Assembly (NCBI GenBank): GCA_026414125.1 | Contig: JAOAJQ010000001.1 | Span: forward strand, 3,349-28,557 | Direction: 5' to 3' | DNA: 25,209 bases | From: Thermoproteota archaeon | GTDB taxonomy: Archaea; Thermoproteota; EX4484-205; JAAOZP01 | Shown: piece by piece, positions 1,342-20,845 of the stretch | How the letters are laid out: each line of letters begins with the position of its first letter | Numbering within the stretch: position 1 is the first letter of the stretch | Program-made: the position numbers and the translations under genes | The notes under the pieces: generated by a model | Told to the model about the DNA's origin: nothing | Databases searched by the model: none | Seen by the model: only the letters and a program-made list of their open reading frames with translations

Positions 1342-1891
1342 AATACCGAGCGAGGAGAAATGCGTTAAGATTCTCCTAGAGGAGGGGGTTAACAGCAACG
1401 TTCTCAGACATGTCTTGAAAGTCAGCGAGGTCGCTAAAGAATTGACAAACAGTGTTGAGTCGAAAGGATACCGCGTGGATAAGAAGCTGGTTGCTGCAGG
1501 AGCGCTTCTCCACGATATTGGAAGAGCAATTACTCATGATGTTTCACATGGAGTAATAGGTGGCCAAATAGTTAGGAGGAGGAAACTAGACGAGAGGCTT
1601 GCGAAAATAGTTGAGAGACATGTGGGAGCAGGAATATCTGAAGAGGAGGCTTTGAGACTGAAACTAGGCTCCACAAGCCTGATCCCGGAGACCATTGAGG
1701 AGAAAATAGTCTGCTACGCCGACAAGCTCGTAGACGGCGATAAGAAGGTAGAGTTCACGGAAACACTGAAATACTTTAAGGAGAAACTGGGTGCAGACCA
1801 CCCGGCGATAAGAAGGCTTGAAGAGCTAGACGCCTTTTTCCAAGAAATCCTCCGAAAAGACAACAAGGACAAAAAACCCAAGCATTGCTGA
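1325..1891 (+). CDS. HD-domain phosphohydrolase (TIGR00295-like)
   Basis: HVLKV...GALLHDIGR...HGVIG...ERHVGAGI...EEKIVCYADKL. The ATG at 1325 overlaps the end of tfe and is preferred over the TTG at 1319. Confidence 0.9.
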   Translation: MRRKSRIPSEEKCVKILLEEGVNSNVLRHVLKVSEVAKELTNSVESKGYRVDKKLVAAGALLHDIGRAITHDVSHGVIGGQIVRRRKLDERLAKIVERHVGAGISEEEALRLKLGSTSLIPETIEEKIVCYADKLVDGDKKVEFTETLKYFKEKLGADHPAIRRLEELDAFFQEILRKDNKDKKPKHC

Positions 1892-1932
1892 AACCCTTGG
1901 GGAAACCTGGTTAGCGGTTAAACAATTGCTTA

Positions 1933-1949
1933 AAGGAAATATTTTTATT
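1933..1949 (+). promoter_or_regulatory. BRE/TATA promoter of tRNA-Lys
   Basis: AAGGAAATA-TTTTTATT ends about 24 nt before the mature 5' end at 1973. Confidence 0.6.
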
Positions 1950-1972
1950 CACCCCAAAATACTGAGCAGTCG

Positions 1973-2066
1973 GGACCCGTAGCTCAACCTGGTTAGAGCG
2001 CTGGGCTTTTAACCCAGAGCCGCGCGCGGCGGGTAAATGTTGCGGGTTCAATTCCCGCCGGGTCCG
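1973..2066 (+). tRNA. tRNA-Lys(TTT) with a 19-nt intron at non-canonical position 43/44 (2018-2036)
   Basis: Acceptor GGACCCG/CGGGTCC, D stem GCTC/GAGC, anticodon arm CTGGG-CTTTTAA-CCCAG, T arm GCGGG-TTCAATT-CCCGC. BHB: helix ACCC/GGGT, bulges AG^A and AA^A, inner hairpin GCCG/CGGC. Removal leaves variable loop ATGTT and a 75-nt tRNA. Confidence 0.95.
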
Positions 2067-4528: not shown

Positions 4529-4843
4529 GGGCGGCAGCCCCATGGGGGTCGAGCCCCTCCGACGCAGCTGGCGTGCAACAGGTTTACCCTCCAGCCGTCT
4601 CTTACCAACGCAGGTAGCTTGCCTTACCGCTGCTCCCTCCCGGGCCTAGCGGGTTCGGCAATTAGGCAGACGCGCCCACCCTACGGCGGGCGAGCCTGCT
4701 ACTCCCGCCCAGTAAGGATGGCTTTCACAGACCTGCTGCAGCCGGCTGCGTTGAGGCAGCCCTGTCCCCAGGTTATCGGCTCCCCGCGTGTCGCCAGTTT
4801 CGGGTTCAGGGAATGGCGAGCTCCCCGAGCCTACCTGCCGCCC
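4529..4843 (-). ncRNA. Archaeal signal recognition particle RNA (7S RNA), about 315 nt
   Basis: On the minus strand: helix 1 GGGCGGCAG/CTGCCGCCC, Alu-domain sequence TCCCTGAACCCGAAACTGGCGACACGCGGGGAGCCGA, helix 6 with GTAG (GNAR) loop, and helix 8 CTAGGCCCG-GGA-GGGAGCAGC. A T-run follows the 3' end and a TATA-like TATTTATG lies about 25 nt upstream. Confidence 0.95.
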
Positions 4844-11134: not shown

Positions 11135-11266
11135 TAGCCCGGGAGAGATTCGAACTCTCATCAAGGGGTTTCTCCGCAAGCATACGCTAAACTGCACCAA
11201 AGCCCCCCATGTCTTGGCGCGACGCTTTGCCATTACAATCGACGCCTTTTTTGGCTCCACCGGGCT
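11135..11266 (-). tRNA. tRNA-Gln(TTG) with three introns: 10/11 (11256-11238, 19 nt), 21/22 (11226-11213, 14 nt), 37/38 (11196-11170, 27 nt)
   Basis: Removal gives AGCCCGG TG GTGT AATGGCAA ACAT G GGGGG CTTTGGA CCCCT TGAT GAGAG TTCGAAT CTCTC CCGGGCT A (72 nt, A1-U72 as in archaeal tRNA-Gln). Each junction has a 4-bp helix and 3-nt bulges: CGGT/GTCG, TGGC/GCCA, CTTT/GGAG. Confidence 0.9.
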
Positions 11267-11296
11267 TCCCGGGCTTGTTGTAAATCTGCTTGAGGG

Positions 11297-11311
11297 ATTA
11301 ATAACTTTTTA
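11297..11311 (-). promoter_or_regulatory. BRE/TATA promoter of tRNA-Gln
   Basis: Minus strand TAAAAAG-TTATTAAT. Usual spacing predicts a TSS near 11274-11276, about 9 nt before the mature 5' end. Confidence 0.65.
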
Positions 11312-20753: not shown

Positions 20754-20845
20754 GCGGCGTTCGTCTAGTCTGGCCAGGACATCAGCCTGCCATCGCCTTT
20801 CGCGGCTGAGCGCTGGTAACCCGGGTTCAAATCCCGGACGCCGCA
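20754..20845 (+). tRNA. tRNA-Gly(GCC) with an 18-nt canonical intron at 37/38 (20793-20810)
   Basis: Acceptor GCGGCGT/ACGCCGC, anticodon stem TCAGC/GCTGG, loop CT-GCC-A^C, T arm CCGGG-TTCAAAT-CCCGG. TATA TTTTTAAC at about 20724. The mature tRNA is 74 nt. Confidence 0.95.

Follow-up and report, generated by a model that had tools for sequence, protein, structure and literature searches.

Introduction

Can 132 nucleotides of archaeal DNA that ordinary tRNA finders pass over encode a functional tRNA-Gln, and how would an intron whose splicing motif is built from the acceptor stem itself be removed from such a gene? These questions are raised by positions 11135-11266, minus strand, of the window, by which we mean the whole 25,209-nt stretch of DNA that was analyzed (contig JAOAJQ010000001.1, assembly GCA_026414125.1). 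The original prediction, made from the sequence of the window, read this locus as a tRNA-Gln(UUG) gene interrupted by three introns, one of them at position 10/11, at the base of the D stem. The genome is represented by an assembly of 1.25 Mb in 228 contigs, 70% complete. Its genus belongs to the Brockarchaeota (placed in phylum Thermoproteota), since one ortholog of the gene, L009, from another species of the genus, has exactly the sequence of a contig (L038) of "Candidatus Brockarchaeota archaeon JZZ.bins.4".

Archaeal tRNA genes with several introns are already known as a type; what is unusual in the present case is a motif built from the acceptor strand and its tight association with a copy of that strand in the leader. 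Reviews of 2014-2015 stated three introns to be the maximum for a tRNA gene, and a review of archaeal tRNA introns names the positions 3/4, 20/21, 22/23, 25/26 and others, 10/11 not being among them.

Results

A tRNA-Gln gene in four exons

The features of the locus, in the order of transcription, are:

11297-11304, minus strand: TATA-like box TTATTAAT, 22 nt upstream of the leader copy (read from the sequence; kept in orthologs)
11267-11275, minus strand: leader copy AGCCCGGGA of the acceptor 5' strand, 9 nt, abutting nt 1 on its upstream side (conserved in all same-genus orthologs)
11135-11266, minus strand: tRNA-Gln(UUG) gene, 132 nt unspliced and 72 nt spliced, CCA not encoded (ARAGORN on the spliced form; orthologs)
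11257-11266, minus strand: exon 1, tRNA nt 1-10, AGCCCGGUGG (GGTGG/TG junction backed by the intron-less ortholog L016)
11238-11256, minus strand: intron 1, 19 nt, position 10/11, relaxed BHB of the HBh' type (motif geometry; same-genus orthologs)
11227-11237, minus strand: exon 2, tRNA nt 11-21, the 3' part of the first D-stem strand and the D loop (ARAGORN fold of the spliced form)
11213-11226, minus strand: intron 2, 14 nt, position 21/22 (motif geometry; presence or absence in orthologs)
11197-11212, minus strand: exon 3, tRNA nt 22-37, with the anticodon UUG inside (ARAGORN fold of the spliced form)
11170-11196, minus strand: intron 3, 27 nt, canonical position 37/38, strict hBHBh' (motif geometry; presence or absence in orthologs)
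11135-11169, minus strand: exon 4, tRNA nt 38-73, comprising the 3' strand of the anticodon stem, variable loop, T arm, acceptor 3' strand and discriminator A (Rfam T-arm match; ARAGORN)

The gene begins with AGCCCGG and ends with the T arm GAGAG-UUCGAAU-CUCUC, followed by CCGGGCU and the discriminator A. Excision of 19, 14 and 27 nt had been proposed to leave a standard 72-nt tRNA-Gln, and this is borne out both by ARAGORN, which calls the spliced product tRNA-Gln(ttg), and by the junctions of the orthologs described below. The product has A1-U72, U8, A14, G18G19 and the anticodon loop CUUUGGA, with all tRNA identity features intact. The unspliced gene is missed by ARAGORN and by the Rfam tRNA covariance model, to which the T arm alone gives a score (13 bits, at an E-value cut-off of 10), a failure of standard scanners that the original prediction had thought possible. 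A search for another tRNA-Gln(UUG), proposed at the same time as a check, found no second tRNA-Gln gene in the window's own 70%-complete assembly. A split or permuted tRNA gene was ruled out: the four exons stand in order on one strand within 132 nt, and the three separate BHB introns lie within one contiguous, co-linear gene.

In all three introns, a central helix of 4 bp lies between two 3-nt bulges, one on each strand, and the cut site follows the second bulge nucleotide:

Intron 1 (10/11): bulges GG^A and AU^U; central helix C5-G, G6-C, G7-U, U8-G; inner stem GCC/GGC with a loop of six A; outer helix of 1 bp
Intron 2 (21/22): bulges AA^A and AG^A; central helix UGGC/GCCA; inner stem of 2 bp; no contiguous outer helix
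Intron 3 (37/38): bulges GG^U and AA^A; central helix CUUU/GGAG; inner stem of 4 bp; outer helix of 7 bp

Classed by motif, only intron 3 is strict (hBHBh'); introns 1 and 2 fall under the relaxed HBh' type, their inner stems measuring 3 and 2 bp and their outer helices 1 and 0 bp. The central helix of intron 1 consists of acceptor nt 5-8 paired with GUCG of the intron, and in the window's gene it contains two G-U pairs; the original prediction had every detail of this motif right, from the helix strand C5-G6-G7-U8 and its partner to the two bulges and the inner stem. The intron strand of this helix, at 11242-11245 of the window, reads GUCG and so gives a G7-U wobble; 10 of the 14 same-genus orthologs have GCCG there. 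For intron 2, a register shifted by +1 yields an identical mature sequence and was rejected for loss of the central helix.

Exon boundaries in related genomes

When 40 related genomes were searched by BLAST, the gene turned up in 14 further species of the genus (L002-L015, the window's gene being L001), in which the exons are near-invariant and the introns diverge. The 10/11 insert is kept by all 14, with a length of 15-20 nt, between G10 and U11. The other two come and go: the 21/22 insert is present in seven orthologs (L002, L007, L009-L013) and missing at the exact predicted junction in seven (L003-L006, L008, L014, L015), and the 37/38 insert is present in seven (L002-L006, L008, L014) and missing, again at the exact predicted junction, in seven (L007, L009-L013, L015). 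Of the 15 genes from the genus, only the window's own and L002 combine all three inserts, and L015 has the 10/11 insert alone. A neighboring family of the same order supplies a gene free of inserts, L016 (73 nt), in which GGTGG is joined directly to TG and which the Rfam model matches over its full length (63 bits). The placement of an intron at 10/11 is therefore backed by this gene as well as by the 14 same-genus orthologs, and the natural presence and absence of the inserts fixes the exon boundaries independently of the motif. Moreover, since 14 same-genus orthologs share this architecture, with introns 2 and 3 there or missing at the very same junctions, a chance origin is far too unlikely. 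Judged by its sequence and that of its relatives, the locus is a genuine three-intron tRNA-Gln(UUG) gene, and the initial observation is confirmed.

An alignment made without reference to motifs merged introns 1 and 2 of the window's gene, because its D loop differs from that of the intron-less gene; this parse was rejected in favor of the junctions that the orthologs define. The orthologs are themselves poorly seen by the Rfam tRNA model, which recognizes L015 only from model position 9 onward (39 bits) and does not detect L009 or L003.

Within the genus, introns 2 and 3 are nearly mutually exclusive: beside the 10/11 intron that each of L001-L015 carries, six genes have the 21/22 intron only, six the 37/38 intron only, two have both and one has neither. 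This pattern points to a three-intron ancestor followed by differential loss, or else to exchange between lineages. A second tRNA-Gln(UUG)-like gene, found in one genome of the genus (L211, G012:C69:7770-7981), differs in its T arm, lacks the 10/11 intron and carries two other inserts; it is either a paralog or bin contamination. Upstream of the intron-less tRNA-Gln of L016, at a distance of about 220 nt and on the same strand, is a 5S rRNA gene (L016 1799-1919, minus); Rfam places none beside the tRNA-Gln of the window.

The 10/11 intron across the Thermoproteota

The same 10/11 arrangement was found in tRNA-Gln of Nitrososphaera, Nitrososphaeraceae, other Nitrososphaerales, several Bathyarchaeia and Brockarchaeota by an exact-pattern scan of one genome per species; its 120 hits were mostly chance matches in bacteria, and a hit was kept only where the T arm and acceptor end of a tRNA-Gln followed. 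In an even sample of 401 Thermoproteota genomes, 28 carry the interrupted pattern and 266 an uninterrupted 5' region, and a reversed control pattern gave zero hits for the interrupted pattern in the same sample. Of these 28, 15 are from the window's genus (out of 17 genomes, counting the window's), three are from family f4 (out of six) and about ten are from eight other families; among these last, L205 was set aside as a chance match.

Among 41 interrupted genes from three classes, the intron strand opposite C5-G6-G7-U8 pairs at all four positions every time; loci L001-L020 were free of any constraint, and for those from L021 on the search pattern had fixed in advance the first bulge A and the last two positions of the helix. 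This strand is GCCG in most of the 41 genes and GUCG, GCUG, ACCG or AUCG elsewhere. The inner hairpin covaries, with unrelated sequences forming 1-9 bp, from GCC/GGC up to a 9-bp stem. The features of the intron that hold throughout the 41 genes are its first A, the 4-nt complement to nt 5-8, a 2-nt tail starting with A, and a covarying hairpin. On this comparison of sequences, the 10/11 intron is a conserved tRNA-Gln feature of several Thermoproteota classes and is not special to the window's gene.

Alignment to an intron-less ortholog further identified three inserts in L178 and L020, and four in L095, L179 and L206, and each of these five genes splices to 73 nt and is called tRNA-Gln by ARAGORN. 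Three introns are neither the maximum nor confined to the Thermoproteales. The prediction had described triple-intron tRNAs as rare and known from that order: the gene with three introns stood, but the restriction to Thermoproteales did not, given the four-intron tRNA-Gln genes and the up to five introns that a 2026 preprint reports for Asgard archaea. The four-insert genes, L095 from a Bathyarchaeia MAG (CAYXJU010000006.1) and L179 and L206 from one genome (G377), are 145-156 nt long, with inserts at 10/11, in the D arm/anticodon-stem region, at 37/38 and in the T arm.

A leader copy of the acceptor strand

Immediately upstream of the tRNA, the leader (11275-11267, AGCCCGGGA) copies acceptor nt 1-7; the corresponding place was compared in L002-L020 and L028-L134. 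The core of this copy, GCCCGG, occurs within 12 nt upstream of 37 of the 41 interrupted tRNA-Gln genes, those with the copy being spread over at least nine families, and of none of 30 uninterrupted tRNA-Gln genes taken from as many other genomes of the phylum, counts that were drawn from related genomes and hence from non-independent samples. Of 12 further interrupted genes, two of them duplicates of earlier loci, 11 have the copy as well. The same association is seen at close range. In the genus, a UUG gene with both intron and copy stands in the same genome as a CUG gene without either (L018, L209, L210, L212, L213), and within family f35 both features occur in one genus and neither in another.

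A split of this kind and the contrasts inside one genome and inside one family argue against a copy that has nothing to do with splicing, in which case the gene and its three introns would be real and the copy would be a promoter-proximal or initiator element, an RNase P determinant or a co-inherited duplication scar. We regard that reading as possible but rather unlikely. It draws support from three genes of the same order that keep the copy without a 10/11 intron (L016, L215, L020) and from two that have the intron and no copy (L090, L095), and shared ancestry could account for part of the association. A further exception is L214, in which the copy is decayed. With exceptions in both directions, the link between leader and intron is therefore strong but not absolute.

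Folding calculations bear on the same choice. When the precursor is modeled without its leader, the acceptor stem forms with a probability of about 1 and the 10/11 helix with a probability of 0; with the native leader, the copy captures the acceptor 3' strand with a probability of about 1. Minimum-free-energy folding does not form the 10/11 central helix even with the leader, as would suit a copy unrelated to splicing, and constrained energies were compared instead because unconstrained folding fails to give this helix. Forcing the 10/11 motif costs 12.9 kcal/mol in the window's gene without leader, 6.3 with the native leader and a mean of 11.7 with 50 shuffled leaders; over the 41 genes, the mean costs are 9.3, 4.1 and 7.8 kcal/mol, respectively. 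The native leader beat the shuffled ones in 38 of the 41 genes, and the three exceptions have no exact copy. This modeled saving, together with the fact that the copy matches exactly the strand whose partner the motif leaves unpaired, speaks against an unrelated leader. As the 10/11 motif is not the minimum-energy fold, enzyme binding would have to supply the remainder.

On these grounds, we infer that the leader copy probably helps removal of the 10/11 intron by serving as a stand-in partner for the acceptor 3' strand. The case for such a helper is one of calculation and of correlation among related genomes, and falls short of demonstration. No description of a leader-encoded splicing helper of this kind was found in the searchable literature. 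Within the genus, the window's 10/11 motif is the costliest in the folding model with leader (6.3 against 0.9-5.0 kcal/mol).

Splicing enzymes and RNA data

Each of the 16 other genomes of the genus has two genes with the EndA catalytic-domain fold. The 188-aa paralog has a match (E 1.7e-48) in the catalytic subunit of the Aeropyrum pernix heterotetramer and retains the catalytic His, the residue mutated in the inactive crystal form. The paralog of about 200 aa (28% identity) has GLKPAK at the position of this residue, so that the catalytic His is missing. The pair fits the alpha-beta type of EndA, of broad specificity, which PMC5829648 counts as one of only two types able to cut non-canonical introns. 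The window's own 70%-complete assembly contains only the His-less EndA (G000:C144:10314-10571; L141, ORF 1450-2052, minus strand), and the 188-aa catalytic subunit presumably sits in the unassembled 30%. An RtcB ligase is present in the window's own genome (PF01139, E 3e-171, 485-aa open frame).

A route other than the proposed motif for removing or tolerating the 19-nt insert at 10/11 is highly improbable, be it another register or helix, another nuclease, or retention in the mature RNA. The relaxed motif, with its 1-bp outer helix and two G-U pairs in the central helix, and its competition with a 7-bp G+C-rich acceptor stem leave some room for such a route. Yet the junction is fixed by the intron-less L016, and sliding the boundaries alters the mature sequence; the sole invariant features of the intron over 41 genes are those that the motif needs; and retention would destroy the D stem. 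The idea that the locus is a decaying pseudogene with fortuitous motifs deserves hardly any credence: the standard scanners give no hit for the unspliced gene and no RNA run with the locus was found, but the exons are near-invariant in 14 species of the genus while the introns diverge, this is the sole tRNA-Gln gene of the assembly, a conserved TATA box and leader are in place, and the tRNA identity features are intact.

The locus is present in DNA runs from hot-spring metagenomes; no RNA run with the window's locus was found, and only DNA runs contain it. In two libraries labeled metatranscriptomic there were no spliced joints, and the unspliced gene of a relative, without intron 2 (14 nt), was present. 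Contigs of 74 nt (word depth about 58-68) in the metatranscriptomic-labeled libraries X4 and X5, compared with window positions 11135-11173, end at tRNA ends; their sequence resembles an intron-less tRNA-Gln(CUG) from another organism. These contigs may be mature tRNA reads, but they are not assignable to the window's gene.

Discussion

A proposed path from precursor to mature tRNA

Observed here are the gene, its junctions and motifs, their conservation, the enzyme genes and the association between leader and intron. The best explanation of the whole, in which we have high confidence, is a functional tRNA-Gln(UUG) whose three BHB introns would be cut by EndA and whose exons would be joined by RtcB, with help from the leader. 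Going by the usual archaeal spacing, transcription would start near 11276-11272, driven by the putative promoter, the TATA box about 30 nt upstream, and would give a precursor of about 145-150 nt. A putative alpha-beta EndA tolerant of relaxed motifs would then cut the BHB motifs at 10/11, 21/22 and 37/38. The three motifs use separate nucleotides, and therefore no order of splicing is forced. As the central helix at 10/11 uses acceptor nt 5-8, the acceptor stem would have to be partly open at the time of cutting, and the 9-nt leader copy is proposed to pair meanwhile with the acceptor 3' strand, thereby freeing nt 5-8. RtcB would join the four exons into the standard 72-nt tRNA. After splicing, the true acceptor stem would reform, and RNase P would remove the leader.

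A broader proposition is that an old, conserved 10/11 intron of Brockarchaeia, Bathyarchaeia and Nitrososphaerales, with a motif that borrows from the acceptor strand, has co-evolved with the leader copy as a cis-acting RNA chaperone. We would give this proposition an even chance. If it is true, tRNA splicing would have a built-in RNA chaperone. If the copy is indeed a helper, it would offer a simple, directly testable example of a precursor that brings along a folding aid of its own, to the benefit of an enzyme guided by RNA shape alone.

Comparison with known interrupted tRNA genes

The closest likeness in number of introns is to the multi-intron tRNAs of Thermoproteales, for example Pyrobaculum islandicum tRNA-Pro(UGG), which likewise has three introns, at 25/26, 37/38 and 56/57 (PMC4090602, PMC4390854). 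The genes of both groups are co-linear and have short BHB introns, one canonical and two non-canonical, with relaxed HBh' motifs; the hosts have a two-subunit EndA (putative here, from its genes), and ordinary tRNA finders miss the genes. Unlike them, the window's gene belongs to the Brockarchaeota and has an intron at 10/11 whose central helix is formed by acceptor-stem nucleotides. This intron, in addition, is conserved across classes, does not look like a recent lineage-specific gain, and is accompanied by a leader copy.

Another Thermoproteales intron, at 3/4 (Sugahara 2008, as summarized in PMC4090602), has a motif that likewise needs acceptor-stem nucleotides, so that the stem is not fully formed at cleavage; it differs from the 10/11 case in its position and in the tRNAs that carry it. 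The tRNA-Gln genes of Nitrososphaerales, seen in many Nitrososphaera and Nitrososphaeraceae assemblies, share with the window's gene both the leader copy and the 10/11 layout (A, hairpin, GCCG, A-N). They differ in that the 10/11 intron usually stands alone and that the hairpins are longer and A+U-rich. tRNAscan-SE 2.0 has an intron model specific to Thaumarchaeota (Thaum-BHB), and 53 non-canonical introns are given for three Nitrososphaerales genomes (PMC8450103), so that a GtRNAdb entry for 10/11 is plausible and the site may well be listed there.

In Asgard archaea, according to a 2024 paper and a 2026 preprint, tRNA genes may contain several introns, as many as five, and it is the D-arm introns that escape annotation. 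Those genes are alike in having several introns each, which were located, as here, by comparison with compact relatives. They differ in belonging to another phylum and in reaching five introns, and the portions consulted make no mention of a leader copy or of a tRNA-Gln intron at 10/11.

Implications for annotation and intron history

Our literature search found no earlier report of a multi-intron tRNA in Brockarchaeota, and the three-intron gene extends heavy tRNA interruption to this group. Unless intron-aware tools are applied, annotations of Brockarchaeota genomes will appear to be without tRNA-Gln. Non-canonical tRNA introns have been regarded as late, mobile acquisitions (PMC4390854), a view with which the 10/11 intron contrasts, as it occupies the same site in the same tRNA in three classes.

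The window contains further RNA genes. Three more tRNA genes lie on its plus strand, at 1973-2066, 2120-2221 and 20754-20845; at 92-102 nt, they exceed the length of a mature tRNA and are therefore intron-containing. An archaeal SRP RNA is located at 4529-4843 on the minus strand (Rfam, 131.7 bits).
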